Part shown: positions 8,344 through 55,755 of the stretch, piece by piece
How the letters are laid out: each line of letters opens with the position of its first letter
Position numbering within the stretch: the stretch's first letter is position 1
DNA from: a bacterium
GTDB lineage: Bacteria; Patescibacteriota; Minisyncoccia; Phycocordibacterales; UBA6065
NCBI GenBank assembly: GCA_030680695.1
Contig: JAUXUT010000149.1
Span: 39,801 to 103,800 of the forward strand
Direction: 5' to 3'
Length of the DNA: 64,000 nt
Program-made: the position numbers and the translations under genes
The notes under the pieces: generated by a model
What the model saw: only the letters and a program-made list of their open reading frames with translations
Databases searched by the model: none
Told to the model about the DNA's origin: nothing

Positions 8344-8856
8344 TTAGGCGCGCTCGATTATGGTCGACATGCCTTTCGGGCTTTTCTGTGGCCTTTCAGC
8401 GAGCTTGTGGGGGACAGTGATGAGGACGAGCAGGCGATTCATGCGTTCCTCGAGGAACTTCGGGTCCATGTATTTGGATCGGCCGGGGAGGAAAAGGTCG
8501 AGCTTGATGCGCTGGCCGTCGACAAGCCATTCCGAGGCCTTTTTGGCTTTGAGGGCGAGGTCATGATCGCCGGTACCGATTTTCACCTGAAGGGTTTTAA
8601 TCTCGATAACATGAGCCTTGGCCTTGGCCGCCTTGGCTTTCTTGCTTTCGTCGTACGAGAACTTGCCATAGTCCTGGATTTTGCAGACTGGAGGGACTGC
8701 GTTCGGAGAAATCTCGATAAGGTCGAGGCCAAGCTCCTGCGACTTGAGAAGGGCGTCGCCCATGCGCATTACGCCGAAATTCTCGCCCTCAGGGCCGATT
8801 ACGCGCACTTCGGGCGACTTGATCTGGAGATTTATTCTAGTCCTTAGTTTACTCAA
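8344..8856 (-). CDS. infC: Translation initiation factor IF-3; start uncertain and probably non-AUG
   Basis: INLQIKSPEVRVIGPEGENFGVM aligns with the IF-3 N-domain; C-domain is typical; the ORF-track start at 9024 would overlap the upstream sortase gene; candidate starts are TTG at 8856 or ATA at 8835 (the latter 5 nt after AAGGA). Confidence 0.8.
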   Translation of the reverse strand: MSKLRTRINLQIKSPEVRVIGPEGENFGVMRMGDALLKSQELGLDLIEISPNAVPPVCKIQDYGKFSYDESKKAKAAKAKAHVIEIKTLQVKIGTGDHDLALKAKKASEWLVDGQRIKLDLFLPGRSKYMDPKFLEERMNRLLVLITVPHKLAERPQKSPKGMSTIIERA

Positions 8857-8918
8857 TTCTTTGATGTGTTTATTACTGTCGGTCGCTACATGAAAGCATA
8901 TTTCGAGACATACGGCAA

Positions 8919-9560
8919 TCAACTCCTCTCTTGTACGGGGCTGTCTGTAAGAGAGGATCGATCGACTAGCATGTCCGCCATCACCACCAATCGGTGAGAG
9001 TAGCTTTTCGTTTCCTTGTTCCATATCCCTTCGCAGGTGATGAGGTTAAGGTGCGCCTTGCCGTCTGTTGAATTGAATACCTCAGCAGTCGGGTCATGTT
9101 CGCCGTACATCGTGCTCGTGCGAACGATGAACGGTATTACATTTCCATCCTCATCCTCTACATAGATCATGTCTCCAGGCACGAGTTTGTCGAGATCGTC
9201 GAAGATAGCCGGTATCCCACCCTTGAATCCCGCGTGACCGTCGATGACCGCACTCCCTATTTCTCCGGGTCGGGGCCCCAGATAGAACCATCCTGCCGTC
9301 CGCGGCCCGTATGGCGCATCGAGGGCCCCTTGAGGGGTGATGCCGACTTGCTCGATTTTGGTATCGACTCCGATCTTTGGGATGCTCAAATGCACCGGTA
9401 TTCCTGCTGCACGGGCCGTCGTGTCTGTCGTTTGGACCGAGGCGACAGGGGGCGATGCCCTCATCTCATGGGGGACAAGTATCACGAGCGCGGCCAAGGC
9501 AATCCCGATGAGCAGAGCCTTGGTCGCAGAAAGCAGCCCCTCACAAGACAGGGCCCTCAT
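8919..9560 (-). CDS. Sortase-family transpeptidase (class E/F-like)
   Basis: N-terminal TM anchor, conserved His (GHAGF) and an LITCEG motif of the TLxTC catalytic-Cys type. Confidence 0.75.
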   Translation of the reverse strand: MRALSCEGLLSATKALLIGIALAALVILVPHEMRASPPVASVQTTDTTARAAGIPVHLSIPKIGVDTKIEQVGITPQGALDAPYGPRTAGWFYLGPRPGEIGSAVIDGHAGFKGGIPAIFDDLDKLVPGDMIYVEDEDGNVIPFIVRTSTMYGEHDPTAEVFNSTDGKAHLNLITCEGIWNKETKSYSHRLVVMADMLVDRSSLTDSPVQERS

Positions 9561-10708
9561 TAGCGCTTCGAGAACGCTCTCGTAGCCGAGAAGGCGAAGA
9601 TCGAACTCAGGCTAAGCATGATGATACTGAACACAATCATGTTTTTCGGGGAAGTCTCGCCCGAGAGGCCCGCATTCGGGAAAGAAGGCGCGTATGCTCC
9701 AGAGATATCTATCATGATATCTGCGCTCGTGGGCGAAACCGCGTTTACGACAGCCGCCGGGCTGGTGCTCGCTGACGTGGTTTCCACATCGCTTCGTGGG
9801 CCTCGCGTGCTTGAACCGCTTCCGCTCGATCCCGTACCGCTCGAATTCAATGCGAATCCTGGTACGCTCACAGGTGCGATGACGAGCGCTGGAGTGCTGA
9901 TCTGGTTTGCATCGAGAGTCACCTGAGTCTGAGCGAGAGCTCGTCCGTTAAGGACTGCACCGGTCTGGATGATGACCTGGGTTGCGCTTAGGATGGTTCC
10001 GTTGAAGGTGGAGAACGTTCCGAGAGTCGCTCCGGTCCCTCCTCCTACCTGCCAAAAGACATTGCCCGCCTGTGCCCCGCCGACTAGATTGACCTTTATG
10101 CCTGCAGGCACACTGGCTCCCGATGCTATACTGAGATTTCCGGCGATCTGGAATATCCAGACATCGTTTACACCTCCCGAAAGAGTGACGTCCGTCGGGA
10201 TAGAGACATTCGTGCTCCATTTATAGAGTCCTGGGGCGAAGGTTTGGCCTCCGAGGTTTCCGGCAAAAAGCTCTGTGCCGTCAGGAAGTGTCCTTCCTGC
10301 CGCATCGTTATAGGCGGTTACCATGTCGAGCACCGCGGTGTCTACAAAGGTCTTGTTCGAGAGGGGAGGATTGCCTGCGAAACATGTCTGCGATCCGCTG
10401 CCAACATACGCCGCGTTGACGCCGTATATGGTGCCGTTGATCTGAGAACAGAAGACGTCGTTCATCGCTGCCGCCGTTATCGGACTCGAGCCGATGTTGC
10501 CGGTTATAGCCGTAGTATGACCACCCGTCTCCGTTATTCCGGTTTGCGAGAGTATAGTGAAGTTGCTCGCCGACAAGAGATTAATCGCGGACGGTCCTGC
10601 TGCCAGGGCGATGCTCGGAATTGTTACGCCCATGAAGAAAAACACCGCTGTTGCAGCAAGGGCTGCGGTTCGATTCAACTTTTTCATATTCTTACTTTTA
10701 TTCGTCAT
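9560..10708 (-). CDS. DUF3494 (ice-binding-like) surface protein with a C-terminal sorting-signal-like tail
   Basis: Signal peptide; SAINLLSASNFTILSQTGITETGGHTTAITGNIGSSP resembles the DUF3494 N-terminal repeat; C-terminus has a hydrophobic stretch followed by RAFSKR. Confidence 0.7.
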   Translation of the reverse strand: MTNKSKNMKKLNRTAALAATAVFFFMGVTIPSIALAAGPSAINLLSASNFTILSQTGITETGGHTTAITGNIGSSPITAAAMNDVFCSQINGTIYGVNAAYVGSGSQTCFAGNPPLSNKTFVDTAVLDMVTAYNDAAGRTLPDGTELFAGNLGGQTFAPGLYKWSTNVSIPTDVTLSGGVNDVWIFQIAGNLSIASGASVPAGIKVNLVGGAQAGNVFWQVGGGTGATLGTFSTFNGTILSATQVIIQTGAVLNGRALAQTQVTLDANQISTPALVIAPVSVPGFALNSSGTGSSGSGSSTRGPRSDVETTSASTSPAAVVNAVSPTSADIMIDISGAYAPSFPNAGLSGETSPKNMIVFSIIMLSLSSIFAFSATRAFSKR

Positions 10709-10886
10709 TATATTGATGCATGTACAGCTTGGTAACGGTAGGGATCAGAGGTGTCGTTATTCGGTGCATTACATATGATAGCATTTTTACACAAAAATAG
10801 CTTATGATTGTCAATACTAGGACACGCTTTTTAAGAATGCGTTATCGACAGCATATTTAGGGCCTTGGGGCGATGAATCGCGGTCG

Positions 10887-11681
10887 CTAGAGGGCGTTGA
10901 ACGCGCGTTCCTTCATATGTCTTTCGGCCTCGTTGACGATTTTCTCCATCATGGCCACGGCCTCGACGGGGTATTTACCCACGGACGTTTCTTCGGAAAG
11001 CATGACAGCATCGGAACCCTGGAGTATGGCGTTTGCGACGTCGGTCACTTCAGCGCGAGTGGGGAAAGACTTTTCCTTCATAGACAACAGCATTTCGGTT
11101 GCAGTTATGACGGGTTTCCCGGCAGCGTTTGCGACCGCAATGATTTTAGCTTGTGCAAATGGCAGTGTTTCGATGGGAATGTTCGTGCCAAGGTCCCCGC
11201 GAGCAACCATGACGGCGTCTGCCGATTCGACGATTGAATCGATGTCGGCGAGGGCTTCGGCTCGCTCGATTTTGGCGATGAGTTTTTGCGTGCCGCCGAG
11301 CTTTGTAAGAGCCGCACGCGCATCATCGACATCCTGGGCTGATCCAATAAACGAGAGGGCGATATAATCGACGTTTTTCTCGACGCAGAATTTCATGCTT
11401 TCAATATCTTCATTGGTGAGCACCGACGCGCCTTTTTGGTATGTGTGACCGTTCTCGTTCTGGACTCGTGGGCCAGAGAGGTCCGCGATGATTGGTAGTT
11501 TCCTGCCAATCTTATTCTCGACCGACCGAACGGTGTCGATCTGGGCGGACTTTTCAGCGAAATCTCCCCATGCGAAGTTGAGACGTGCGATATCGGCCTG
11601 GCACGCAGTCATAGAAGTAAATACGGCCTCGTTCGATGATGCGGGTCCGATGGTGACGATTATCTGGGCTTTGGATGGCAT
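10887..11681 (-). CDS. pyk: Pyruvate kinase, short form (barrel domain only, 264 aa)
   Basis: IIVTIGPAS, MVARGDLG, KPVITATEMLLSM, PTRAEVTDVANA pyruvate kinase motifs. Confidence 0.85.
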   Translation of the reverse strand: MPSKAQIIVTIGPASSNEAVFTSMTACQADIARLNFAWGDFAEKSAQIDTVRSVENKIGRKLPIIADLSGPRVQNENGHTYQKGASVLTNEDIESMKFCVEKNVDYIALSFIGSAQDVDDARAALTKLGGTQKLIAKIERAEALADIDSIVESADAVMVARGDLGTNIPIETLPFAQAKIIAVANAAGKPVITATEMLLSMKEKSFPTRAEVTDVANAILQGSDAVMLSEETSVGKYPVEAVAMMEKIVNEAERHMKERAFNAL

Positions 11682-16910: not shown

Positions 16911-16912
16911 TG

Positions 16913-17305
16913 TGGAGATGCTGGGAGTCGAACCCAGGTGCACATGATCCTTCTCAACACTTCTACGCGATGTAGCTATTCTTTACCCCGATTAAGGGGT
17001 GTTAGGGCCGAGGGCTCGAGGAATAGCAGAACGCCCTTGACCCGATCCTCGTCGGCCGAAGCCGTTTACCGTGGGGAGAGGAGTCCCCGCGGCTATCCTG
17101 CATCTATGTCGCTGCTTGCCGGCGCGTCAGGAATGCACCGGGGCATCGTCGCTTAGGCTAGAGCGTAAGCGAATGAGAAATCCTTTGCCGCGAAAAACGG
17201 CGATTTGATGGATTTAGCATTTGTGGGTTCGGACAGATTAAAGAGTTATCCGGGCTCTATCGCGCATGAAGAGAAGGGAAGCATATGTCTATGCCTTTCA
17301 TCCCC
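16913..17305 (-). ncRNA. ssrA: tmRNA (ssrA)
   Basis: Minus strand: 5' GGGGATG... pairs with 3' ...CATCTCCA; T-arm CTGGGTTCGACTCCCAG; candidate tag ORF gca aag gat ttc tca ttc gct tac gct cta gcc TAA (AKDFSFAYALA); immediately downstream of smpB. Confidence 0.8.
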
Positions 17306-20935: not shown

Positions 20936-21008
20936 GCGCCCTTAGCTCAGTTGGTAGAGCGATCGACTTATACTCGATTGGTCGGGGGTTCGAGTCCCTC
21001 AGGGCGCA
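20936..21008 (+). tRNA. tRNA-Ile with anticodon TAT (UAU)
   Basis: Cloverleaf: acceptor GCGCCCT/AGGGCGC, D-arm GCTC..GAGC, anticodon stem ATCGA/TCGAT with loop CTTATAC, T-arm GGGGGTTCGAGTCCCTC; no encoded CCA. Confidence 0.8.
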
Positions 21009-21023
21009 CACGTTTCAGACCCA

Positions 21024-25226: not shown

Positions 25227-26357
25227 CTAATCTTTAATGATCCTACTTAAAAAAGGATTAATATTAGTCGCAATGTCATCTGGTATCGTACCGCATTCTC
25301 TTGCAATATTCATAATAGAATTCTGGTCTCTCGCATCACTGCTAATGACTGTAACAGGGCTACCGAGTTTTACATCCTTGATTTCCGTCACATCAATTAT
25401 TGTCGTATTCATACTTACCAAACCGATTATTTTCGCAAAGTTATTGCCAATTTTTACCACGCCTTTATTTGATAGTCGTCTATCAACTCCCGTATCGTAG
25501 CCAACAGGTATTATGGCAATCTTTTTAGCTGAATCTGAAATATATGTCCCGCTGTAACCAACTTTTGAGTTTGGTTCAATATTTTTTAATCCTGATATAA
25601 CCGTTGTCAATTCCAGCACAGGCTTCAAATGAACTAACGAGTCAACTTTTCCATTGCCAGCAAAACCATATAGACCCATTCCAGGGCGAGTCACATTCGC
25701 ACTGATCTTTTCGTTATAGCCATGGCCAGCTGAATTACTTACATGAAAGTATCGGATGTTAGTAAAATTGGTTTTGAAAATATCGACAGCAGAATTCCAT
25801 GCTTCAATTTGGATATTTGTATAAGTCGAATCTGTATTACCTGCATCAGAAAAATGAGAATAAAGTCCTTCTAGTTTAAGAGTCGGTGATTTTTTTATGA
25901 GCTCAATCGATTGAGAGATTTGAGACAGAGAGATTCCTTGCCTATTCATTCCCGTATCAATTTTTATATGCACATTAGTTTTTTTACTTATTCTGCTTTG
26001 CCATTCGTAAAGCATGTCTAGACTCGTAACAGCGAATGATATATTTTTTTGGGTCGATTTGTTTACGGTTTCAGCTTGAATGTATCCAATTACGAGAATT
26101 GGGTTCGTTATTTTGTTCTGCCTGAGAGCTATGGCCTCCTCGTACGAATCAATAATAAAAAAAGGAATTTTTTCTTTACTTAATAATTTTGCAATATCGA
26201 TTAATCCATGGCCGTAGGCGTTGCTTTTTAATACTGGAGCTATGGCAGGTGAAAGTTTTTGAAATTCTTGGAAATTGTGGATAAGAGCCCGTCGAGAAAG
26301 TGATATGAGAGTGTACGGAGTTGATGGAGACTTTAACTTAAATGTGATTTTTATCAT
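25227..26357 (-). CDS. alr: Alanine racemase
   Basis: VLKSNAYGHG PLP-Lys motif, C-terminal VSMNTTIIDVT; low-GC context. Confidence 0.85.
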   Translation of the reverse strand: MIKITFKLKSPSTPYTLISLSRRALIHNFQEFQKLSPAIAPVLKSNAYGHGLIDIAKLLSKEKIPFFIIDSYEEAIALRQNKITNPILVIGYIQAETVNKSTQKNISFAVTSLDMLYEWQSRISKKTNVHIKIDTGMNRQGISLSQISQSIELIKKSPTLKLEGLYSHFSDAGNTDSTYTNIQIEAWNSAVDIFKTNFTNIRYFHVSNSAGHGYNEKISANVTRPGMGLYGFAGNGKVDSLVHLKPVLELTTVISGLKNIEPNSKVGYSGTYISDSAKKIAIIPVGYDTGVDRRLSNKGVVKIGNNFAKIIGLVSMNTTIIDVTEIKDVKLGSPVTVISSDARDQNSIMNIARECGTIPDDIATNINPFLSRIIKD

Positions 26358-26391
26358 TGAGATATTTTGATATTTATACTATTATACCCTT

Positions 26392-27846
26392 ATGTCAAGT
26401 GAACTAAAAAACAACAAGGTTGAAAAAAAGATTACCGGTAGGAATGAGGATTATTCCCAGTGGTATCTCGATATAGTTGCATCTGCCGATCTCGCAGAAT
26501 GGGGCCCTGTAAAGGGATGTATGGTCATCAAGCCTTATGGATATGCATTATGGGAAAAGACGCAGCAAATCCTCAATGAAAAATTCAAGGAGACTGGGGT
26601 ACAGAATGCATATTTCCCGATTTTTATTCCCGAAAAATTTCTCAATAAAGAGAAAGACCATATCGAGGGTTTTGCACCAGAGGTTGCGGTTGTCACTCAT
26701 GCCGGCGGCAAGAAGCTCGACGAGCCTTTGATTGTGAGGCCGACATCAGAGACTATAATGTACGAAACTTTTTCTCGTTGGATACATTCTTATCGAGATC
26801 TGCCATTGTTGATTAATCAATGGGCAAATGTGGTTAGGTGGGAGATGCGTCCCCGCATATTTTTACGTACGGTTGAATTTCTTTGGCAAGAAGGACATAC
26901 GGTTCACGAAACTGAAAGTGAGGCAGATGGACGGGCACGCCAGATGTTGGAAATTTATAAAGATATTGCCGAAAATATTATGGCCATTCCAGTTATTACT
27001 GGAACAAAATCTGATTCGGAAAAGTTTGCTGGTGCGTTTAAGACTTATTCGCTTGAAGCCATGATGCAAGACGGCAAAGCTTTGCAGTTTGCCACCTCAC
27101 ACAATTTGGGACAAAATTTTGCAAAAGCGTTTGATGTTAAATTTCTCGATAAAAACAACACCGTCCAATATGGATGGCAAACCAGCTGGGGGCTAAGCAC
27201 GCGAACCATAGGCGGTCTTATCATGACTCATAGTGATGATAAAGGATTAGTATTGCCACCAAAAATCGCCTCAATTCAAACGGTTATTACAACCATCGTT
27301 CCTTCCGAAAAAGACAGAGAAATGATAAATCAGAAAGCCCAAGAGCTTAACATACTCTTAAAGAAAGCAGGCGTTAGAACCCATGTTGATAGTCGCGATA
27401 TACGCCCTGGTGAAAAATATTATGAATGGGAAAAAAAAGGTGTTCCGATACGTATAGAGCTTGGGCCAAGAGATGTAGCCAGCGATTCCGCCATGCTTGT
27501 TAGACGCGATACTGGGGAAAAGACAAAGACAACCATGAGTTCTCTGGTCGGGGATATCAATTCTCTGTTAAATAACATACAGCAAAATTTGTACGTGCGA
27601 GCACTAGATTATCGCAAAGCAAAGACAAAAAAAGTTGATTCTTGGGATGAGTTTGTAAAAGCGATTGAGGAAGGCAATTTTGTTTTAGCTCATTGGTCTG
27701 GTGAGAAGAACGTCGAGGCTCAGATAAAAGAAGAAACGGGAGCCACTATTCGATGCATTCCGTTTGATCAGACAAATGAGTCTGGAAAATGTATAAAATC
27801 AGGCATGCCTTCTACGGGTCGGGTGATATTTGCGAAGTCTTATTAA
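26392..27846 (+). CDS. proS: Prolyl-tRNA synthetase, archaeal/eukaryotic-like class II type
   Basis: WYLDIV..ADLAEWGPVKGCMVIKPYGYALWE, VRPTSETIMY, NQWANVVRWEMR.R.FLRT.EFLWQEGHT and a C-terminal zinc-binding-like domain. Confidence 0.9.
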   Translation: MSSELKNNKVEKKITGRNEDYSQWYLDIVASADLAEWGPVKGCMVIKPYGYALWEKTQQILNEKFKETGVQNAYFPIFIPEKFLNKEKDHIEGFAPEVAVVTHAGGKKLDEPLIVRPTSETIMYETFSRWIHSYRDLPLLINQWANVVRWEMRPRIFLRTVEFLWQEGHTVHETESEADGRARQMLEIYKDIAENIMAIPVITGTKSDSEKFAGAFKTYSLEAMMQDGKALQFATSHNLGQNFAKAFDVKFLDKNNTVQYGWQTSWGLSTRTIGGLIMTHSDDKGLVLPPKIASIQTVITTIVPSEKDREMINQKAQELNILLKKAGVRTHVDSRDIRPGEKYYEWEKKGVPIRIELGPRDVASDSAMLVRRDTGEKTKTTMSSLVGDINSLLNNIQQNLYVRALDYRKAKTKKVDSWDEFVKAIEEGNFVLAHWSGEKNVEAQIKEETGATIRCIPFDQTNESGKCIKSGMPSTGRVIFAKSY

Positions 27847-27854
27847 CCCACTTT

Positions 27855-29021
27855 ATGCCCTTTAAGGTATCTATACATGATGATCTGTCTATAAAAGATC
27901 TGATAGATATTAAAGATAAGGGAGGGGTGGTGTTAAAAACACCGCATGTCGGCAATATCTACCCTAACAATCTTGCAATTGCGTCTTTAGGTATACCAAT
28001 GCTCTTTTACGATAGGACTTTGGGGGTCAAAGATATAAGTTTTCATCCAGATAAAATTATTATTGGTGGCAGGTCAACGTTAATAGCCGACCCAAACATT
28101 TTAACCACGCATTCAATAGTCAAAAAGCTTCCAGGTTTAGCGTTTAAAGATGCAGCTGTCGGTATGAAGCTGGTGGATTTTCATATGTCCTCATTTAAAC
28201 GTGCGTTACCTCAGGCGGACTGTTTTACCTACACGGAATATATTCAAAATAATAAAAGTCAGATTCTCCAGATTTTAGAAAAAATCACAGAATTTCATCC
28301 ATATTTGTGGAGCAGAGGTGTTGATGAAAGCGGAAAGACTTTTAAATCTCAAGCAAAAAATTGGGACGACATCATTAGGTCGGGAGTCCTGGGGCTTACC
28401 AGTATGAAAAGTGGTTGGATTATACCTAATCCGGTCAGCATCCTTTTTCATGGAACCGTTGATACGCTAAAGGCAAACGCAGAAGATGTGTATCTCTTAT
28501 CGGGTCCAGACATGTATCGATACATAGAGGGATACCAACTCGAACTTAACGAGGCGTACGACTATTTAAGAAAAAGCTTAAAGTGTGAACTTCCTGAAAT
28601 GGTTCGTTGTCATATTATTCCTGTCATTTGCATGAGATTTATCGTTGAGGTTGATTATAGGAAAGTGCTAGATAATTTGGTCGATGCATACTTGAGATAT
28701 GTATCTGTCGATGATGCTATCAGAAAAATACTAAAGAGTGGCGCTCAAAACATGAGCATCGATGGGCACATAAATAAAAAGGATAAAATAAAAGAGGAAA
28801 TCTATTCTTGTATCAAAGGTCAATTTGATGCATTCAAAACTACCATGTTTTATGATGTCGAGGAGGCGGGCAGTTTTAGTCAGTATGATCTCGCCAATAG
28901 TAAGGGACTATACGTTCATCCGTGGGCGGTCAATAGTAAACTAAGCGATGTATCCAAGGCTTATAGTTTTTTATTGAGGTGCTATTTGCTCGTAAGAGAT
29001 AGGCTACAGGAAGAGATGTAG
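27855..29021 (+). CDS. Hypothetical protein (389 aa), unknown family
   Basis: ORF; start moved to the MPFKVS Met to clear proS. Confidence 0.45.
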   Translation: MPFKVSIHDDLSIKDLIDIKDKGGVVLKTPHVGNIYPNNLAIASLGIPMLFYDRTLGVKDISFHPDKIIIGGRSTLIADPNILTTHSIVKKLPGLAFKDAAVGMKLVDFHMSSFKRALPQADCFTYTEYIQNNKSQILQILEKITEFHPYLWSRGVDESGKTFKSQAKNWDDIIRSGVLGLTSMKSGWIIPNPVSILFHGTVDTLKANAEDVYLLSGPDMYRYIEGYQLELNEAYDYLRKSLKCELPEMVRCHIIPVICMRFIVEVDYRKVLDNLVDAYLRYVSVDDAIRKILKSGAQNMSIDGHINKKDKIKEEIYSCIKGQFDAFKTTMFYDVEEAGSFSQYDLANSKGLYVHPWAVNSKLSDVSKAYSFLLRCYLLVRDRLQEEM

Positions 29022-29029
29022 CTACTGAT

Positions 29030-29782
29030 ATGTCAATGGAATATGATCCAATTTTATACGATTCCGATCCAAGGCCTTTTCTTAAAGATGAGATAGAATT
29101 TTACGTGAAACTAGTCAATAAATTAAAAGCTAAAACGATACTAGAGCTCGGTGTAGGAACAGGAAGAATTTTTTCAAAGTTACTTCCGTTGGTTAAATTT
29201 GCCGAGGGGCTTGATATTTCGGAATCAATGTTAACCGCATGCAGAAATAAGTGTTCTGGTAGCATGAACTACAAATTACATAAAGCGAGTTTTACGGATT
29301 TTAATTTGCAAACTACATTTGATTTGATATACCTGCCCTTTAATACTTTTCAACACCTGCTTACGCAGGAAGAGCAAATTGAGTGCTTGATAAATATTAA
29401 AAATCACATGCACGTGGGCAGTCGATTCATCCTTGATGTAATGAATGGCGATAATTTAATTTTTGATTTTGAAAACTGGAAACAGGACTATGTGGGCACT
29501 TTGGCTGAAGGTGGATCAGTTGAGCGCGAACAAAAAACGATTAAAGTAGATTCAAAGAATTTTATCATCCATAAAATATTCAGGTATAAAGAAATTGTCG
29601 CTGGTAAGATTGATAAAATTCTTGAATTTAATGCACAGATGAAAGTAACTCCAAATAAGAAGATGGGGGAAATTTTACAGATGACTGGCTTTAAGATAGA
29701 AGACGTATGGTCTGATTACGCTTTCAGTTATACGTGCGACGCGAAGAAAATAATTTATTGCTTAAAATTAAATGGAGTTTAA
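29030..29782 (+). CDS. Class I SAM-dependent methyltransferase
   Basis: ILELGVGTGR motif I and downstream acidic-loop motifs. Confidence 0.7.
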   Translation: MSMEYDPILYDSDPRPFLKDEIEFYVKLVNKLKAKTILELGVGTGRIFSKLLPLVKFAEGLDISESMLTACRNKCSGSMNYKLHKASFTDFNLQTTFDLIYLPFNTFQHLLTQEEQIECLINIKNHMHVGSRFILDVMNGDNLIFDFENWKQDYVGTLAEGGSVEREQKTIKVDSKNFIIHKIFRYKEIVAGKIDKILEFNAQMKVTPNKKMGEILQMTGFKIEDVWSDYAFSYTCDAKKIIYCLKLNGV

Positions 29783-31070
29783 ACCAACTACTATAAAGCT
29801 AGAAAAAGGACAGGTGGTCACATCAATTTACCATAGTCCATTTGACTACAATCTTCTGTACCTTATTTGTCTCGCAAAAACTGGGTTGAAGGTAAGAATC
29901 ATCCTGGACGATATAGATAATTTGGGAGTGGATAAAAGCTTTCCTGAGGGGCCATATTCTTTCAGTGAAAAGTTTTTTATGAGTAAAACAGAAAGAACAA
30001 ATATTCGAGCCCTGTCACTGATAACCCCAAAACATCTCTTTGCAAATTTGTCGCACCCAAACCTTAAGGAGTTTGACTCGAAAATCGGTATATCCACGTT
30101 CAAAGAAAACATCAGATATAGAGATACTGTTGAGCACTGGATCAGGGATGTTACGAAAGATTTCGGCACTTTTTCTCTTATTGGGCCAGATAGATCGTAC
30201 GCTTTTACCATAGTCGATCATTTTTTTGTTCAAGCAATTAGCGATGCTAAGCAGCAAATAATTGATATCTTGAAAAAATTCCCTGATCATAAAGATAACT
30301 CGATTGAATTTATTGAATGGCTTTTTGATGAAAAAGCCATTTCAATCGGCACGCCTGTCTCTGATTATTTTTTATCAGTGATGCAAAAGATCGTTGATAA
30401 ATTTGATTTGCGCGATACCGTATCAGTAGAAAGGATGTCGGACTCGGGTATTGAAGCGAATACAAAAAAACTTATGGATTCATTTACCAACAAAGATTCC
30501 CTGTGGGAGACGTATAATTATGCGGTGGTAATTGAAGGTAAAAAAAATACGGAGGATTTTCCATTTTACGCCATATCTAAGATGGACGGGAAAAGATTGC
30601 TACCTACTGATAAATACACAAATGATCCTACCAGTTATTTTCTTGCACCGAAGGTGTTGATGCTTAACAATTTTGAAAACCTCGTCTTGCCATATCATGC
30701 AATGGGTAGCATGAATGTCCGCGCCAGACAGGCAATGTATCAAAACAAAGAAATAAATTGCAATCAAATTTTCTGTGACGACGAATGGATGAAACACATA
30801 GGTTCTTTCAATATCAAGGCACAACTCGATACTGAGGAGCAAAAGATATATGATATGGATACAGTAAATTTATCTTCACTAGGAGATTTATTTGCGAAAG
30901 GGAAAAAATCATACGGAGACAGCGTAAATACAGAAGAGGCCTATAAGGGTTGGATAATTACCTCGACTTTCAATGCTATTGATCGCGTCAAATACCCACT
31001 AATTTTTATGGCACTCCTCCAAAAAGAAGTTTTTCCTACAAAAATTCCTATTTTTTACAAATTAGCATGA
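29772..31070 (+). CDS. Hypothetical protein (432 aa), unknown family
   Basis: ORF co-oriented and tightly packed with neighbours. Confidence 0.45.
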   Translation: MEFKPTTIKLEKGQVVTSIYHSPFDYNLLYLICLAKTGLKVRIILDDIDNLGVDKSFPEGPYSFSEKFFMSKTERTNIRALSLITPKHLFANLSHPNLKEFDSKIGISTFKENIRYRDTVEHWIRDVTKDFGTFSLIGPDRSYAFTIVDHFFVQAISDAKQQIIDILKKFPDHKDNSIEFIEWLFDEKAISIGTPVSDYFLSVMQKIVDKFDLRDTVSVERMSDSGIEANTKKLMDSFTNKDSLWETYNYAVVIEGKKNTEDFPFYAISKMDGKRLLPTDKYTNDPTSYFLAPKVLMLNNFENLVLPYHAMGSMNVRARQAMYQNKEINCNQIFCDDEWMKHIGSFNIKAQLDTEEQKIYDMDTVNLSSLGDLFAKGKKSYGDSVNTEEAYKGWIITSTFNAIDRVKYPLIFMALLQKEVFPTKIPIFYKLA

Positions 31071-32374
31071 TGTTGACTCTTCTCGAAAAAACGGCCGCGG
31101 CATTAATTTTAAAATTCAAACCCACGGTCGTGTGCATCACGGGTAGCGTGGGCAAGACTTCAACTAAGGAAGCAATAGCCTCTGCATTATCGACCTCCTA
31201 CACAGTCAGAAAGACTTCCCGAAATTATAATAATGATTACGGAGTACCGATAGCCGTTATCGGAGGATTTGAATCAGAAGAGGGCTATTTGGCATTACTT
31301 ACGATACTTGGCTACGGTTTATGGCAATTATACTTTCGATCAAGATTTCCACAGATTTTAGTCATAGAAGTCGGTGCCGGAAAATTTGGAGAAATCGAGA
31401 GAATCTCCCGATGGCTAAAACCTGATATGGTCGTAGTGACCAATCTCCCAGATGTTCCATCCCATCTTGGTGTTTTCGGGTCAAAAGAGATGATTATTAA
31501 GGAAAAGAAATTTCTTGTCAGTGCAATGGATAAAGAAGGAATTTTGATAATCGATAAAAACGAAAGAAATGCGAGGTATTTTTACGAGGATTTCTCCGGT
31601 AAAATTGTATTTTTTGATGCAGATAAATTTATTGAAGGCAGTAAATATACTATTGTGTATGAAGATCGAAACGATTTTAATTATCCGCTCGGTTTTAAAT
31701 TTGAGGTTGAATTAAACAACGCTGTAGACAGAAAATCCGTGACTTTTGAAGGATTTTTGGGTATTCAAAATATGAAGGCTGTTGGAATAGCGGTTTTGGT
31801 CGCTAAACAGTTAAATTGTCGAGTAGAAGATACTTTGCAAGGTATAAAAAAATATAAACCTGAGTGCGGACGCCTCAGAATAATCCCAGAGCTTAATGGA
31901 AAAATAATAGTGCTCGACGATACGTTTAATGCTTCGCCACGCGCGATTGAAAACTCATTAAGAACGCTTCTATCTTTGGAATTAAAAAAAAGCCAACGAC
32001 GGATCGCTGTTTTGGGAGATATGCTTAATTTTGGAAAAGAGGTAGAAAAGATTCACAGACAAACTGCCACGGAAGAATTACCACAGGTCGATATTCTTAT
32101 AACGGTAGGAAACATATCAGTTGTCTGGCAAGAATTTAATAGAAATAAATACCATTTGAACAAGCATTTTAAAAATGCGACTAACGCCGCTCGGTATATA
32201 GAGAAATTTCAAAAAGAAGGCAATATTATCCTTTTTAAAGGAGGTCATTTAACACGTCTTGAGAAAGCGGTTGCCATTCTAACTGGATGCCCCTCCGAGT
32301 ATCTTGTTCGACAAGAGAAGTACTACGAGATACACGAACTCGATCTTAATCCAATATCCGCCGACAATGAATAA
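31067..32374 (+). CDS. Mur ligase family protein, MurF-like (D-Ala-D-Ala-adding-enzyme-like)
   Basis: VVCITGSVGKTSTKEAIASAL P-loop, VTNLPDVPSHLGVFGSKE, GRLRII...IVLDDTFNASP and AVLGDMLNFG motifs of MurF or the CphA C-domain. Confidence 0.7.
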   Translation: MMLTLLEKTAAALILKFKPTVVCITGSVGKTSTKEAIASALSTSYTVRKTSRNYNNDYGVPIAVIGGFESEEGYLALLTILGYGLWQLYFRSRFPQILVIEVGAGKFGEIERISRWLKPDMVVVTNLPDVPSHLGVFGSKEMIIKEKKFLVSAMDKEGILIIDKNERNARYFYEDFSGKIVFFDADKFIEGSKYTIVYEDRNDFNYPLGFKFEVELNNAVDRKSVTFEGFLGIQNMKAVGIAVLVAKQLNCRVEDTLQGIKKYKPECGRLRIIPELNGKIIVLDDTFNASPRAIENSLRTLLSLELKKSQRRIAVLGDMLNFGKEVEKIHRQTATEELPQVDILITVGNISVVWQEFNRNKYHLNKHFKNATNAARYIEKFQKEGNIILFKGGHLTRLEKAVAILTGCPSEYLVRQEKYYEIHELDLNPISADNE

Positions 32375-33356
32375 ATACAAATCAAAAATTACTCCAATTT
32401 TGTTGAAGTTGGCCGAAAAATACAACGCTGAATTTCATGTAATGGATCACGATTCTGACGCTGGTTATATCGTAGGGCAAGATCACAGCAGACATTATTT
32501 TTCCTATGGAACACTGGATTTGAATAATGATGCCGCTACTGATTTTGCGAGAAGTAAGATTCTATCCTCTGAAGTCGTTTCGGCGATTAGGATCAGGGTT
32601 CCGAAGGAAAAGATGGTTAAATTCTCAATAAATTTAAAGGCCCCTATCATTAGTGTTTTGGAGGAAATCGGAACACCCGCGATAATAAAACCAGTACATG
32701 GAGCACAGGGAAAAAATATATTTAAGATAGATTCCTTAAATAATTTTGAGCTAGTTATTAAGAATAACGATTTGAGGGATGATTTAATCATTCAAGAATA
32801 TATTGACTCTCCAAATGAGATCAGGGTCGTTCTTTTAGACGGTGAAGTAATACAGGCATATAAGAGAGATTATGCGTGTGTTATCGGCGACGCGGTAAAA
32901 ACGATAAAAGAATTGATCGAAGAAAAGAATAAATATTTTCAGAACAGACAACGTAATACTGTTATCGATACAAATGACACCCAGATAGCTGTCATTCTTC
33001 AGCAACGTGGATACGATTTGAATTACATACTACAAAAAAATGAAAGACTAAATATTTCTTATGGGCGTAATTTATCGAGAGGCGGAGAGTATGAGTTTAT
33101 TACCAAGCTCAGTCCGATAATCATAGAAGTTTCTAAAAAGATTGCTGAGGCCTCCGCTCTGAGGCTGGTGGGCATTGATTTGTTTGTTGTGGGAGATCTT
33201 GACCATGTAGAGAGCGAGAATCAAATTATCTTCATAGAATATAATGCATCACCAGATATGGAGAATAATTTCTATTATGATGCTGGCTACGAACAACAAT
33301 TATTTTTGATATATGAAAAAATCTTTAGTGGAATGTGCAAATATTCCTTATTGTAA
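32367..33356 (+). CDS. ATP-grasp ligase, cyanophycin-synthetase-N-domain / RimK-like
   Basis: IIKPVHGAQGKNIF; VIGDAVKTIKELIEEKN...LNISYGRNLSRGGEYEF...LVGIDLFVV...IFIEYNASPDME; ATGA start-stop overlap with the MurF-like gene. Confidence 0.65.
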   Translation: MNKYKSKITPILLKLAEKYNAEFHVMDHDSDAGYIVGQDHSRHYFSYGTLDLNNDAATDFARSKILSSEVVSAIRIRVPKEKMVKFSINLKAPIISVLEEIGTPAIIKPVHGAQGKNIFKIDSLNNFELVIKNNDLRDDLIIQEYIDSPNEIRVVLLDGEVIQAYKRDYACVIGDAVKTIKELIEEKNKYFQNRQRNTVIDTNDTQIAVILQQRGYDLNYILQKNERLNISYGRNLSRGGEYEFITKLSPIIIEVSKKIAEASALRLVGIDLFVVGDLDHVESENQIIFIEYNASPDMENNFYYDAGYEQQLFLIYEKIFSGMCKYSLL

Positions 33357-33557
33357 GTAAGTGGTGACGGTCAGCGAATACATCGATCCGTATTCAGGAA
33401 ACTTGACGCAATCTATTTCGAGCACAGCCCTGAGGCGGTCGAGAGCGCACAAAAAGCTGGCGTTGCCTCATATCTTTATGGCCACATCAAAAAAAGACTT
33501 GATTGCGCTAAAGACTTTTTTGATTCGAGCTTGTAGAGCCTGTGGGCGAAGGTTATC

Positions 33558-33639
33558 TGGGATTCGAACGGAATCTCGGAGAGGCGTATTCATATTTTAA
33601 GCCACAAAATCCGCTCCGTTCGAATCGCTTTAAACCCGC
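33558..33639 (+). repeat. Direct repeat DR2 copy 2 (E2/E3 junction)
   Basis: See DR2 copy 1. Confidence 0.65.
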
Positions 33640-33762
33640 CTTGACAATTTAGTATCGGCGTGACCCTATTACTCGCGAGAGTAGTGCGACCCACGAACCT
33701 GCTAGATTGTACAAAACACCAAGAGAATTCTCTTGGTGTTTTGTTGTTTATATAATTATGAA

Positions 33763-34449
33763 ATGGATTTTGAGAAAGCTATTAAAATTATCACTAAACT
33801 CCTCAATAAAGAAAAGCCCAAAACATTTAGCAGTTCTTGGATTTCCTCTTGCTCTCCTAGGGTATATCACTACGTTCGTACTAACTTCAGGACTGAAAAC
33901 GATTACATAGACTGGGACAAGGTCACAGCAGCACTCGATCCCGAGTACGCAAAGCGCTGGGTGCGTTACAAACGCAAAGTTGCCAAGCCATACGAGAATC
34001 AGACTGAGGTGGATATCATACTTACGAAATACAAAGACAAACTCTACACCTTTGTCGCCTTAGTTAATGACGATGACAAAGAAAAAAGAAATCAGCTCAT
34101 CATCGCTCTCGTCAGAATCGCCCAGAAAGGAAATGTTCTCGCTCAACAAGAACTTACGAAGTGGTTGAAGTACGTCGTCGATGATTGGGTTGATAAATAC
34201 TACCCGCTATTTAAATGGAAAGGATACACGGACGACATCGAAGACAAGATCCATGGGTGTATTCGCTGTTACAAGTACACAGGATCGTTTCTTGGCTACC
34301 TATTCAAAACACTCGAGTACTCTGGTCGTGGCATACGACCACTTCAAGCATGGTCGCTTGATAAGAATGTCGGTGATGACGGAGCGACAATGATTGATTT
34401 TATAGCTCAAGATACAGAGACGGGAGAGGTGAAATTGTTCGGGAGGTAA
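33763..34449 (+). CDS. Hypothetical protein
   Basis: ORF with terminator-like hairpin and TTGACA-like element upstream; alternative start at 33733. Confidence 0.4.
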   Translation: MDFEKAIKIITKLLNKEKPKTFSSSWISSCSPRVYHYVRTNFRTENDYIDWDKVTAALDPEYAKRWVRYKRKVAKPYENQTEVDIILTKYKDKLYTFVALVNDDDKEKRNQLIIALVRIAQKGNVLAQQELTKWLKYVVDDWVDKYYPLFKWKGYTDDIEDKIHGCIRCYKYTGSFLGYLFKTLEYSGRGIRPLQAWSLDKNVGDDGATMIDFIAQDTETGEVKLFGR

Positions 34450-34468: not shown

Positions 34469-35311
34469 CTAAATTATCCTCCCATCAATTTCGTGGAATA
34501 AATTGCTGACCATGATAAGGCGACCGAGTGCATCGTGATGCGGAAGCTGATCTTCATCGCCGTGACTAAGATTATTCCTCCACCAGTGCATGATGCCCAT
34601 AGTGGTAAGTTTGAAGCCGAGTTGCTTATTGATCTCCTGCGGTGTTGATAGAGCGTTGAACTTTATTTTCGGGTTCTGCTCACTGAAAACAGCCGCCATC
34701 AAATCAGACCCTTGCTTATCATGAGTGCTTGTAAGGTCTTGGATCGTCTTCTCGAACCTTTCAAGGGCTTTCCGCACTGACTCGTTGATATGACCCTCGA
34801 TGAACATTTTTTTGCAGTCAGGCAGAAGCGATGGATGAAGAACAAACGCATCAAGTATTTTTTGAATCGCTATCGGAGGTGGCACTGTCCTCGGTCTTTC
34901 CTTTGGAAGATTCATTGCTACAATTTCTGATTCAAGATCAATATTGAGAGCCTTAAGTCGGGTTGAAAGTTCGAGTGCTTCAGCTTCCAATACAGGATCG
35001 CCTTTCTCGTGTCGCTTTTCTATTGCCTTCGGTAGCATCTCCCGCACGAGGATTTTTATTGTTCTTGGCTTCTGGCAATAAAGATTTCGCAAGAACTCAT
35101 AGAAAGACTCCTTCTTGTTGGCTGCTTTCGTAGGAAGATATTTCGACAAACCCCTTTCTTTTGCAATTGTCGTCAAAGAAAAGGAACTTCGGAATCCTGA
35201 AAGAGCGATGAGCTTTCCGAGCTGTTCTGCCAGTGCACGGATCGCCTGCGCTTGCGGTGCTGTGACGGTCACTCTTTTCTTTGCAATCTTTTTCTTGGTC
35301 TTCTTTTTCAT
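34469..35311 (-). CDS. Abi_C/HEPN-like protein (TIGR02391-like)
   Basis: C-terminal MHWWRNNLSHGDEDQLPHHDA containing an Rx4H HEPN-type motif of the Abi_C kind; Lys-rich N-terminus. Confidence 0.5.
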   Translation of the reverse strand: MKKKTKKKIAKKRVTVTAPQAQAIRALAEQLGKLIALSGFRSSFSLTTIAKERGLSKYLPTKAANKKESFYEFLRNLYCQKPRTIKILVREMLPKAIEKRHEKGDPVLEAEALELSTRLKALNIDLESEIVAMNLPKERPRTVPPPIAIQKILDAFVLHPSLLPDCKKMFIEGHINESVRKALERFEKTIQDLTSTHDKQGSDLMAAVFSEQNPKIKFNALSTPQEINKQLGFKLTTMGIMHWWRNNLSHGDEDQLPHHDALGRLIMVSNLFHEIDGRII

Positions 35312-35983: not shown

Positions 35984-37333
35984 TTATTCCGTCACCAAGG
36001 TCAGAGTCTTGTCCTTGTAGATGATTCTCGATCGCAGATTCGCTAACAGCTCCCGCTTCTCGCTCGTCATACCTTCCTTGAGAATGTACTTGGCATAGTT
36101 GCGGATATCGGTATCCTTGTCGGTCTTGATCTTTTCCGTTGCTCCAAGCACCGATCTCTGGAATATATTGTATCGGTTGATCTCTTCCTCAAGCTTCTGC
36201 CTCATGCCAAGCTCGTTGATGTTCACCTTGTCGAGAATTTTCAGAAGCTCCGTGATGAGTTCCTCCTCACGGATATATTTGTTCTTGCAATTTCTGTCTC
36301 TTGCTCGTGAACATGAGTAGTAGATGTAGCGGTTGGCACCACCATCTTTCAATTGCTTCCATTTCTCCTCCGCCGATATTCCACTCTGGCAATATCCGCA
36401 GGTAAATAATTTGGTGAAGGCAAACTCTTTCGTCTCTCGCACGATCTGATCACGCTTCAGTTGTGCTTTCACTTTTTCAAACAATTCCTGCGTGATGAGT
36501 GGCTGATGTTTTCCTTGATACCAGTTGCCACTCTCCCTCGGTCTCTCAAAGATTCCGTAGTAGAAGGGATTCTCAAGTATTCGATAGACTCCACTTAAGG
36601 TCAGTGGCTTGTTGCCTCTGGTGTAGAAGTTCAGCTCGAACCTCATCCAGTTGTAGACCTTCCGTCCACTCCATTGCTCGTATGCGACTTTCTCAAACAT
36701 CTTTTTGATGGTCGGCGCTCTTTGCGGATCGACAAGCACCTGTCCTTTCTTATCCATGTGCTTTTGGTTTAGATATCCAAGGGGCGCCGTTCCGACCCAT
36801 AGTCCCATCTCGCATCGCGTTCTAAGTCCTCGCTTCACGTTGATGCCTCGGTTGTCGTTTTCCAATTTCGCTTGAGAACAGAGAATCATCAGCATGAATT
36901 TGTCGTTCGGGCTGTTCGTGAATCTCTGTCCGTAGGTGCGGATGTCCTGCAAATAATTTCCATCCATGAGGTCGATGACTTTCCCGAGATCGCCTGCGTT
37001 TCTTGAAATACGGTCTGGTGCCCATGTTAGTATTCCGTTGAATTTTCCTTGCTTGATCTCATCCACGATCTCGTTGAAGACGGGGCGTTGCCCAGTCTCC
37101 TTGGCCGAGTGCGACTCTCGCTTCATGGTCACGATCTCCAACCCCTCACGCTCGGCAAGCTGAAGCATCTCATTGATTTGGCTATCTATGGAGAGGACTT
37201 GCCGTTCCTCCGATTCCGTCGACTTTCTTGCGTAAAGGCAGTATTTCACCTTTACGGGGCTTGCTACTTTGGCCGCAGTCCCTAATGGCTCTGGTCCTTG
37301 TATTCTTGTCATACAACACAAGGAATGACGCAA
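35984..37333 (-). CDS. Large serine recombinase (integrase)
   Basis: N-terminal resolvase catalytic domain YARKSTESEE...SIDSQ, recombinase domain, C-terminal Cys zinc ribbon and coiled coil. Confidence 0.85.
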   Translation of the reverse strand: MRHSLCCMTRIQGPEPLGTAAKVASPVKVKYCLYARKSTESEERQVLSIDSQINEMLQLAEREGLEIVTMKRESHSAKETGQRPVFNEIVDEIKQGKFNGILTWAPDRISRNAGDLGKVIDLMDGNYLQDIRTYGQRFTNSPNDKFMLMILCSQAKLENDNRGINVKRGLRTRCEMGLWVGTAPLGYLNQKHMDKKGQVLVDPQRAPTIKKMFEKVAYEQWSGRKVYNWMRFELNFYTRGNKPLTLSGVYRILENPFYYGIFERPRESGNWYQGKHQPLITQELFEKVKAQLKRDQIVRETKEFAFTKLFTCGYCQSGISAEEKWKQLKDGGANRYIYYSCSRARDRNCKNKYIREEELITELLKILDKVNINELGMRQKLEEEINRYNIFQRSVLGATEKIKTDKDTDIRNYAKYILKEGMTSEKRELLANLRSRIIYKDKTLTLVTE

Positions 37334-37976: not shown

Positions 37977-38192
37977 ATCCTAATGGATGACGCTGACGCT
38001 ATTAATTGTCTAGGTTGTATTAGATATAAAAAAGGAACCCTCAAGCTTGTGGCCTGAGGGTTCACGGAGAGGTAGGGTTCTTATTCTCTTAGACTTGTCT
38101 TTTGTGGATCAGCCGAAGCGGATCAACTACTAACAAATCGGAATTATCCCTTTATGAAAAGCGGATGCTTTTCAACCTTGTCCGTTGTGTGA

Positions 38193-38414
38193 CTACTTGA
38201 TCGAGTCGAGTTCGGCCATCGTTTTATCGAAGGCGTCCTTGATCATGATCTTCGCGAATTCAGCCAGTTCGGGAGCGGGAATGCCGAGGTTCTTGGCCTC
38301 GTTGGCGATCTCGCGCTTGATCTCTTTCGAGTTCAGGCGGATGCCATCTTGACCCATCTTCCTCTGCAATGCGAGCATTGCGATCTGACCGATTCTTTCT
38401 GTGCTGAGTGACAT
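38193..38414 (-). CDS. Small hypothetical protein
   Basis: ORF only. Confidence 0.3.
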   Translation of the reverse strand: MSLSTERIGQIAMLALQRKMGQDGIRLNSKEIKREIANEAKNLGIPAPELAEFAKIMIKDAFDKTMAELDSIK

Positions 38415-38720
38415 AATGTATGTCTCCTTTCAATGAACTAACATGCCTTTGCGTAAGGCAACCGGTTGATTACTAGGATTTCATCAACAGGTACAGTATA
38501 TCACCTCTTATCACTCTTGTCAAGAGCTAAAATTCGTGTTGTTGGTTACCGACTACACAAAAAATTGAATGTAAGCTAGGGTACAAAATGCCCCTCAAAA
38601 GGCTTCAAAAAGGTCGAAGAAACTGCTAAAATAGCAATAATTATGTAAATACCTCCTACTGGATTTTATTACCACTACAAACACGATCCGAATGGTCCAT
38701 TCAACGACTATTCTTATGAG

Positions 38721-38948
38721 GTGATTGGCACTGCTCGTCACACAGAGGAAAAGACGTTCACTGTGCTGTATCGACCTCTATACGAAAATGATTGGTTCAA
38801 ACCTGCTACCTACCAAGCAAGGCCGCTAGAAATGTTCAACGAAAGTGTCACGAAAGATGGCAAGGCGATTCCTCGTTTTCAGCAGATAACCGATCCAGAG
38901 TTAATTGCAAAACTCGAAAAGATGCGAGATCAAATTTATGGAAAATAA
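38721..38948 (+). CDS. DUF1653-family small protein; conserved N-terminus extends upstream without an ATG
   Basis: In-frame upstream read-through gives PPTGFYYHYKHDPNGPFNDYSYEVIGTARHTEEKTFTVLYRPLY...RPLEMF, the DUF1653 pattern; the open frame begins at 38649 (ATA) after a TAA. Confidence 0.5.
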   Translation: MIGTARHTEEKTFTVLYRPLYENDWFKPATYQARPLEMFNESVTKDGKAIPRFQQITDPELIAKLEKMRDQIYGK

Positions 38949-39489
38949 TAAAGAGCAAAATATAAAAATACTAAAAGCAATTCCAGAAGACGCTCTGGGT
39001 ATTACGACTGTTCTATATAAAACCTGGCTCGATACATATCCAAACGAAGAAATTGGCATCACCAAGGAAGATGTTGAGGAAAGTTATAAAGACCACTTCA
39101 TGGAGGAGCGAGTGAAAAAGCAACAGGAGAATATTGCAAATGCTCCAGCGAATCAACTGCGACTTGTTGCAAAATCTGGTGATCAGATTGTTGGAGTCTC
39201 AACGATGATTCGTAATGAAAATAATAATCAGCTAAGGACAATTTATGTTCTCCCTGAATTTCAAGGAAGGGGCATCGGTCAAATGTTGTGGAAAGAAGCG
39301 CAAAAGTTTTGTGATTCGACAAAAGATACTATTGTTCAAGTTGCTACCTACAACAAAAATGCCATATCTTTTTACGAAAAATTAGGTTTTACAGATACTG
39401 GTAAAAGATGGTCCGATGATAAATGGAAGATGAAGAGTGGTGCAACTATTCCAGAAATGGAGCTAATCATAAAAGTAAATAATTTATAA
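38938..39489 (+). CDS. GNAT-family N-acetyltransferase
   Basis: LRTIYVLPEFQGRGIGQMLW acetyl-CoA-binding motif A. Confidence 0.7.
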   Translation: MENNKEQNIKILKAIPEDALGITTVLYKTWLDTYPNEEIGITKEDVEESYKDHFMEERVKKQQENIANAPANQLRLVAKSGDQIVGVSTMIRNENNNQLRTIYVLPEFQGRGIGQMLWKEAQKFCDSTKDTIVQVATYNKNAISFYEKLGFTDTGKRWSDDKWKMKSGATIPEMELIIKVNNL

Positions 39490-39493
39490 ACGT

Positions 39494-40846: not shown

Positions 40847-40848
40847 TA

Positions 40849-41835: not shown

Positions 41836-41836
41836 T

Positions 41837-54545: not shown

Positions 54546-54600
54546 ACATTTGGGGATAGCGTCCCTATGCGCATGGTAGTATAATCTTAAGGTACCGACC

Positions 54601-55754: not shown

Positions 55755-55755
55755 T

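Follow-up and report, generated by a model that had tools for sequence, protein, structure and literature searches.

A DUF3494 protein gene and a class F-like sortase gene as a candidate two-gene surface-display cassette in Patescibacteria

We have analyzed a gene pair carried by a 64,000-nucleotide (nt) stretch from the genome of an ultra-small bacterium of the Patescibacteria (assembly GCA_030680695.1, contig JAUXUT010000149.1, positions 39,801 to 103,800), hereafter the window. Both genes lie on the minus strand, with the gene for a secreted protein of the DUF3494 or Ice_binding family (PF11999; 382 aa) upstream and the gene for a sortase (213 aa) downstream. Domain assignments, conservation of the sorting motif, synteny and catalytic residues point to a two-gene surface-display cassette of the Candidate Phyla Radiation (CPR), in which the DUF3494 protein would be anchored by canonical sortase chemistry through a relaxed LPXTG signal. 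We assign this reading a probability of about 0.8.

Conservation of the sorting signal and of the gene order

The C-terminus of the substrate, ...APSFPNAG-LSGETSPKN-MIVFSIIMLSLSSIFAFSA-TRAFSKR, displays the three elements that an earlier note on this DNA had described, namely a motif segment, a hydrophobic helix and a basic tail. The pentapeptide FPNAG is followed by a spacer of nine residues, a hydrophobic segment of 19 residues, the TRAFSKR tail and the stop codon, and the AlphaFold2 (AF2) model places a helix over residues 354-381 (predicted local distance difference test, pLDDT, 67-83 for the block). The same note had stated that no LPXTG or LAXTG motif is present, which holds for the literal motifs; the segment that it quoted began one residue late, however, and the LPXTG-type FPNAG was thereby overlooked. 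Of LPXTG, FPNAG retains the Pro (position 2) and the Gly (position 5) and is substituted at positions 1 and 4. The pattern [LF]P.[TA]G occurs twice in the 40,053 residues of six-frame open reading frames (ORFs) of the window, which corresponds to about 0.001 expected occurrences per 20-residue slot.

Among the best 120 DUF3494 homologues, those with a C-terminal transmembrane (TM) segment bear [LF]P[ND..][TA]G at the equivalent position of their tails (SLPNTGFPP, DFPNTGFPP, SFPDTGFSP and GLPNAGI, for example), and the four closest DUF3494 proteins, with 67-100% identity, all contain PSFPNAG. Because homologues carry [LF]P[N/D..][T/A]G at the same place, FPNAG can be equated with the LPXTG position, with Leu replaced by Phe and Thr by Ala. 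Alignment of the C-termini of sortase-adjacent DUF3494 homologues, a check proposed in the earlier note, recovered a conserved [LF]Px[TA]G upstream of the hydrophobic helix. Across 56 such sequences G347 never varies and P341 and P344 hardly vary; no other column outside the head is conserved, and the extended consensus is P-x-[LF]-P-N-[TA]-G (P-x-L-P-N-T-G as the clade consensus). The proposal of a possibly novel recognition motif does not survive this comparison, given that FPNAG aligns with LPNTG, FPNTG and LPNAG of homologues and that each of its substitutions also occurs singly beside the same kind of sortase. Judged by these alignments, FPNAG is not a new motif but one allele within the relaxed [LF]-P-x-[TA]-G signal of this sortase clade.

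Conservation of the pair was followed by a sortase-alignment scan over one genome per GTDB species, which returned 451 relatives. The best 80 loci were examined, nearly all of them from Patescibacteria (Paceibacteria, Parcubacteria, Minisyncoccia, Adlerbacteria, Jorgensenbacteria and others), and a PF11999 gene was taken as adjacent when it lay on the strand of the sortase gene and ended no more than 700 bp upstream of that gene. With a first neighbour profile built from close homologues, Ice_binding appeared upstream in 37 loci and about half of the neighbours were classed as 'other'. Eight of ten 'other' substrates checked with Pfam were also PF11999, hence the profile was iterated, after which Pfam confirmed PF11999 in 56/56 proteins. 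The sortase is adjoined by a PF11999 gene in 55 of the 80 loci, or in 52 of the 66 (79%) with at least 1.5 kb of upstream DNA, and in 36 of these 66 the gap between both genes is at most 100 bp. In the two closest FPNAG orthologues with enough contig (P0002 and P0004), the sortase gene overlaps the substrate gene by 4 nt. A DUF3494 gene followed by a sortase gene is a conserved two-gene cassette in most related genomes, and the sortase-substrate pair claimed in the earlier note is supported by the family assignments and the signal architecture together with this adjacency and these overlaps.

The signal accompanies the gene order: of the 55 substrates next to a sortase, all but two have [LF]Px[TA]G with a hydrophobic helix after it, and most of these 53 also end in a basic tail. 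LPNTG is the most frequent form (24 cases), and the others are LPNAG (11), FPNTG and LPDTG (4 each), LPATG (3) and single instances of FPNAG, LPDAG, LPSTG, LPTTG, LPRTG, LPKTG and LPETG. Ala occupies position 4 in 13 of the 53 motifs and Phe occupies position 1 in five.

Other arrangements were also observed among the relatives. In P0110, a metagenomic protein of 566 aa, Ice_binding and Sortase domains share one ORF, by natural fusion or else as an artefact of read-through or of a frameshift in the adjacent pair. Three sortase-adjacent PF11999 genes (L016, L062 and L077) keep LPNAG without an intact hydrophobic helix and basic tail, and these tails may be truly decayed or may stem from frameshifts or from faults of assembly. 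A second, longer sortase-like gene (278-397 aa) stands beside the pair in L083, L010, L012, L015, L025, L061, L064 and L071; that of L083 (3036-3974) is fused to a PG_binding_1 domain, and the window has no such gene. Of the 56 sequences, 35 add DUF7507, eight SpaA_2 and six DUF11 as stalk domains. A second architecture of PF11999 proteins in Patescibacteria ends in a C-terminal peptidoglycan-binding domain (...FGPITRAYLSAHY, PF01471, PG_binding_1) and has no sorting signal (L011, L052, L060, L064, L076, L080 and P0083, P0087, P0101), which suggests that in these proteins the head is attached to the wall non-covalently, not covalently.

The two proteins, the predicted anchoring pathway and its rivals

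The substrate matches PF11999 over residues 52-270 (E 6.6e-59, 199.5 bits, profile positions 1-207 of 208), and with the NCBIfam equivalog IBP_CFB it reaches 226 bits, under the 400-bit cut-off of that model. Its N-terminus, MKKLNRTAALAATAVFFFMGVTIPSIALA-AG, resembles a Sec signal peptide, in line with the signal peptide named in the earlier note, and AF2 predicts a helix over residues 13-28. The stalk is of low complexity (S17 A10 T7 P7 V7 G7 in the 72 residues 271-342) and is left disordered by AF2, with pLDDT <50 over residues 284-351. The model is confident only for about residues 140-265, with beta-strands at 160-265; it further shows a long helix at 116-137, and residues 30-126 have low confidence. 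The head domain is 70-81% identical to many Patescibacteria homologues. It is also ~50-70% identical to proteins labelled Methanoregula, Desulfosalsimonadaceae and Pseudomonadota, and partner sortases are just ~45-63% identical; the Ice_binding head would be either unusually conserved for a surface protein or horizontally mobile.

The enzyme matches the peptidase C60 family of Pfam (PF04203) with an E-value of 1e-20 and 74.2 bits (cut-off 26.6) over profile positions 1-124 of 125. Among the NCBIfam classes, class F scores best (117.3 bits, E 4.6e-34), ahead of E (30), C (23.8), GN (20) and D (15). Ten CPR sortase homologues obtain 102-134 bits with the class F model, likewise under its cut-off of 166 bits. 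Since class F is the best class yet the score lies below the cut-off, we term the enzyme class F-like and regard it as a divergent branch whose nearest class is F. The identification as a sortase, upheld by classification with hidden Markov models (HMMs), agrees with the earlier note, which had recognized the TLxTC-type LITCEG, here within HLNLITCEG.

A hydrophobic N-terminus is common to all sortase homologues in an alignment of 26 sequences. The AF2 model of the sortase (pLDDT 80.5) combines a beta-barrel with an N-terminal helix (residues 7-27), and a Foldseek search with it against the PDB gave 110 matches at E<=0.001, of which the 50 listed were all sortases with probability 1.00. The solved structures matched belong to classes C, E and D; neither the sequence search nor the fold search of the PDB turned up one of class F. 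Searching by sequence gave weak matches only (E about 1e-4), and the fold search shows the entries concerned to be Thermobifida fusca sortase E. With its start at Met33, the NCBI model of the sortase (P0121, 181 aa) lacks the membrane anchor; the 213-aa reading fits both the family and the predicted helix.

Canonical sortase biochemistry, from which the cleavage site, the wall acceptor and the translational coupling of the pair are predicted, would lead to the following course of events. The Sec pathway would export the precursor, with its DUF3494 beta-helix head on a stalk of ~70 Ser/Thr/Ala/Pro-rich residues, and the hydrophobic helix and the TRAFSKR tail would keep this FPNAG precursor in the membrane. 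The coupled downstream gene would supply the class F-like sortase, anchored in the membrane by its N-terminus, whose Cys176, together with His109 and Arg190, is predicted to cut between Ala346 and Gly347, giving rise to a thioacyl intermediate. An amine of a peptidoglycan precursor would then resolve the acyl-enzyme, so that the beta-helix would end up bound covalently to the cell wall. A His-Cys-Arg triad and a thioacyl intermediate are part of the reviewed sortase pathway (PMC8225981). The window encodes an alanine racemase (25227-26357) and a Mur ligase-like protein (31067-32374), which is consistent with a peptidoglycan wall. No second substrate with motif, TM segment and basic tail was found among the six-frame ORFs of the 64-kb window, so that a dedicated sortase-substrate pair appears plausible as judged from this stretch.

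Several points weigh against this interpretation. The LPXTG-anchor models PF00746 and TIGR01167 do not detect the native isolated tail, even at E<=10. Replacing in silico Phe by Leu and Ala by Thr in the tail gives E 0.011 with PF00746 and E 0.21 with TIGR01167, and this restored PF00746 match indicates that annotation misses the native signal for a trivial reason; just 1/56 clade substrates match PF00746 at 1e-3. An Ala at the scissile position could reduce or even abolish the processing of FPNAG. The sortase obtains 117 bits against a curated class F cut-off of 166 bits (NCBIfam NF033748), and the AF2 model of the substrate is poor overall, with a mean pLDDT of 59. Finally, the window represents 64 kb of a genome of ~650 kb, and other substrates or sortases may exist.

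The alternative that survives best holds that FPNAG is an uncleavable remnant of LPNTG, that the protein is tethered to the membrane by its C-terminal helix, and that the sortase serves other substrates or none. Two of the five motif positions deviate from the clade consensus, including the residue at the acyl-enzyme bond, and the silence of the LPXTG-anchor HMMs on the native tail together with the relatives L016, L062 and L077, where the motif is kept and the TM segment is gone, would fit such a decay. Nevertheless, we regard it as improbable. FPNAG remains unchanged in four orthologues that are just 67-76% identical overall, which argues for purifying selection, and Ala in the fourth motif position and Phe in the first recur, at the frequencies given above, in sortase-adjacent substrates of which nearly all have an intact TM segment and most a basic tail. 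Moreover, the sortase itself is intact, its triad is present and its gene overlaps that of the substrate. Proteins with LPNAG are also found on staphylococcal surfaces, as documented for a predicted cell-wall protein (SasH-like) recovered by surface shaving of Staphylococcus haemolyticus (PMC7137321).

Less probable still is that the sortases of a sub-lineage have co-evolved to favour FPNAG over LPNTG. The four closest substrates all bear PSFPNAG, and the partner sortases (those of the window, P0123 and P0124) form the closest group, with about 50-60% identity, as such a specialization would predict. A co-variation test was carried out on 54 sortase-substrate pairs, in which the mutual information (MI) of each alignment column was compared with a 300-permutation null that ignores phylogeny. 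For the T/A state the top sortase column reached MI 0.342 against a 95% null maximum of 0.448, and for the L/F state MI 0.342 against a 95% null of 0.362, the latter being weak with just 6 L/F cases among the pairs. A specificity switch was thus rejected, as no sortase column exceeded the permutation null for either state. The window sortase furthermore has every invariant and nearly invariant residue of the family, and the same substitutions are scattered in other lineages beside ordinary family members. With about four FPNAG cases from one lineage, a lineage-specific change is inseparable from shared ancestry. One relaxed motif appears as the most economical reading of these sequences.

We consider it very unlikely that a class C-like sortase joins DUF3494 subunits head-to-tail into a pilus, instead of or before wall anchoring, for although the top Foldseek matches are class C pilin sortases and Corynebacterium diphtheriae SrtA, with E-values nearly tied with those of classes E and D, and several relatives have the longer sortase-like gene beside the pair, NCBIfam class C scores 23.8 bits versus 117 for class F, the window has neither a second sortase nor a second pilin-like substrate, no pilin-motif lysine was identified and the sortase sequence lacks a C-terminal TM segment.

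Layout of the pair and other features of the window

The two genes share a single base, 9560, at which the last A of the substrate TAA is the A of the sortase ATG (...AAG CGC TAA TGA GGG...). The earlier note was right about the one-nucleotide overlap but had reversed its order, with the substrate start on the sortase stop. This stop/start overlap suggests translational coupling, and the sortase gene is probably coupled to the substrate gene in this way. Coordinates of the pair and of its elements are collected in Table 1.

Table 1. Coordinates of the gene pair and its predicted elements within the window.
Feature	Position	Strand	Basis or remark
Substrate gene, secreted DUF3494/Ice_binding (PF11999) surface protein	9560-10708	-	382 aa ORF; stop codon 9560-9562
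Signal peptide, about residues 1-37	10598-10708	-	read from translation: basic n-region, hydrophobic core, cleavage-type site between ALA and AG
Ice_binding (DUF3494) beta-helix domain, residues 52-270	9899-10555	-	Pfam envelope
Low-complexity stalk, residues 271-340 (~70 residues)	9689-9898	-	Ser/Ala/Thr/Pro/Gly-rich
Sorting motif F-P-N-A-G, residues 343-347	9668-9682	-	codons TTC CCG AAT GCG GGC
C-terminal hydrophobic helix MIVFSIIMLSLSSIFAFSA, residues 357-375	9584-9640	-	Kyte-Doolittle maximum 2.4
Basic tail TRAFSKR, residues 376-382	9563-9583	-	translation
Sortase gene, class F-like	8919-9560	-	213 aa ORF; ATG = 9560-9558
Sortase N-terminal membrane anchor ALLIGIALAALVILV, about residues 7-29	9474-9542	-	hydrophobic segment; AF2 helix 7-27
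Catalytic His109 codon CAC	9234-9236	-	invariant in 26 sortases
Catalytic Cys176 codon TGC, in HLNLITCEG	9033-9035	-	invariant in 26 sortases
Catalytic Arg190 codon CGA	8991-8993	-	invariant in 26 sortases
Promoter-like site TTACCA-17-TATAAT, upstream of the pair	10707-10735	-	consensus match only, 10/12

A second ATG of the substrate gene at 10687, which would give 375 aa, is chosen by both the NCBI and the Logan gene calls and may be the true start. The -10 box of the promoter-like site overlies the first ATG; three promoter-like sites were found versus 1.6 +/- 1.4 in shuffles, hence this signal is weak. Proteins identical to both products are present in NCBI records, under the names 'ice-binding family protein' (P0001) and 'class F sortase' (P0121), as well as in a Logan contig from SRR13727517.

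On the 3' side of the sortase gene, the same strand carries infC (8344 to about 8871), rpmI and rplT. The infC product was recognized by Pfam through IF3_N (E 2.2e-27) and IF3_C (E 1.1e-08). This gene (8344-8871, minus strand) has no in-frame ATG near the start of the IF3_N domain and probably uses a non-ATG start, and in the Logan contig L001 an opposite-strand ORF of 170 aa without Pfam match (10714-11226) is called in its place, probably a miscall. Directly upstream of the DUF3494 gene, an ORF with a pyruvate kinase domain (PF00224; 10887-11681, minus strand) is only 264 aa long, far below the typical length.

Further features of the window lie at a distance from the pair. A tRNA-Ile with anticodon TAT (UAU) is found at 20936-21009 (plus strand), this anticodon being an uncommon bacterial way to read AUA, and a tmRNA at 16912-17305 (minus strand). 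GC content falls to 0.37-0.40 in 26000-34000 and 38000-42000, compared with about 0.50 elsewhere. The former stretch holds ProRS, a methyltransferase, two ORFs without Pfam match (27789-29021 and 29772-31070) and the Mur-ligase-like gene (31067-32374), which is overlapped by a RimK-type ATP-grasp gene (32304-33356). Between 34469 and 47350, on the minus strand, a Hypoth_Ymh protein (34469-35311), a large serine recombinase (35984-37333), a 698-aa ORF without Pfam match (42844-44940) and an N6/N4 DNA methylase (46064-47350) may together mark an integrated mobile element. A type IV pilus cluster occupies 53430-60557 on the plus strand and comprises PilM (53430-54545), a PilB-like ATPase (56110-57822), a PilT-like ATPase (58264-59328) and PilC (59343-60557).

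Relation to known systems and biological meaning

The window sortase resembles the class F sortases (NF033748; Cutibacterium acnes SrtF) in its best-scoring class, its His-Cys-Arg triad, its TLxTC-type LITCEG, its N-terminal anchor and the LPXTG-type signal of its partner. It differs from them in that the enzyme and its CPR homologues stay in the 102-134 bit range, below 166, in its source, Patescibacteria rather than Actinobacteria, and in the position of its gene directly behind that of a specific substrate. The only characterised class F sortase is SrtF of Propionibacterium/Cutibacterium acnes, which is LPXTG-specific (PMC8225981), and the part that class F sortases play in the physiology of Actinobacteria is reported as unknown, a quadruple class F deletion in Actinoplanes having produced no phenotypic changes (PMC13251363, PMC8225981).

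As for the signal, it shares with LPXTG (PF00746, TIGR01167) and its LPxAG variants the pentapeptide with Pro2 and Gly5, the short spacer, the helix and the basic tail, whereas the combination of Phe1 with Ala4, in a native tail that neither HMM detects, sets it apart. The clade also has a conserved Pro at the third residue ahead of the motif and, in many cases, [FLIV]-P-P behind it. In its architecture of head, stalk and cell-surface anchor, the substrate is comparable to the fibrillar-adhesin-like proteins, among which PF11999 is listed as an adhesive head (Monzon & Bateman, PMC8286594), and its relatives add DUF7507, SpaA_2 or DUF11; the window protein is nonetheless minimal, with a single head and a low-complexity rather than folded stalk. 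The DUF3494 proteins with PEP-CTERM of Gammaproteobacteria (PMC9957290) likewise unite this head with a sorting signal at the C-terminus and a dedicated processing enzyme, although they depend on an exosortase in diderms, whereas the window pair combines a sortase with peptidoglycan in a monoderm-type envelope.

More than half of the CPR genomes are known to contain sortase genes (Meheust et al. 2019, PMC6744442), and a general mention has been made of 'sortase motifs' on surface proteins of CPR bacteria (PMC5220378). In the literature covered, which did not extend to subscription papers such as Vance et al. 2019, no work linking DUF3494 to sortases or to CPR bacteria was found, and searches on ice-binding and sortase returned just general fibrillar-adhesin and nanocage papers. 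The Pam pili, a novel CPR pilus presented in a 2026 preprint, involve donor-strand-exchange pilins and have no relation to the window pair.

The stalk domains of fibrillar adhesins and the relatives ending in PG_binding_1 point to a role at the cell surface. Our preferred guess, weakly suggested by analogy with these proteins, is that the head acts as an adhesin toward a host cell or a surface rather than as an antifreeze. A broader proposal, to which we give somewhat less than an even chance, would be that of a previously undescribed module extending across Patescibacteria, in which DUF3494 proteins with P-x-[LF]-P-N-[TA]-G, encoded before a class F-like sortase in ~80% of such loci, would be its principal substrates and probably a main wall-anchored adhesin of these episymbionts, not an antifreeze; if so, class F-type sortases would gain a defined natural substrate.

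The sorting signal itself appears as a two-substitution variant of LPXTG within textbook sortase anchoring, and what remains of interest is the cassette, together with the failure of the HMMs to see such signals. Since the LPXTG-anchor models detect only one of the 56 Patescibacteria signals, and not that of the window protein, wall-anchored proteins of CPR bacteria are probably under-annotated. That 52 of 66 species-level loci have the cassette suggests that the class F-like branch of sortases has a defined natural substrate. A wall-anchored 'ice-binding' fold, widespread in CPR genomes from groundwater, peat and lakes, supports the view that this fold frequently serves adhesion over freeze protection, and such a role could bear on the attachment of these bacteria as epibionts.

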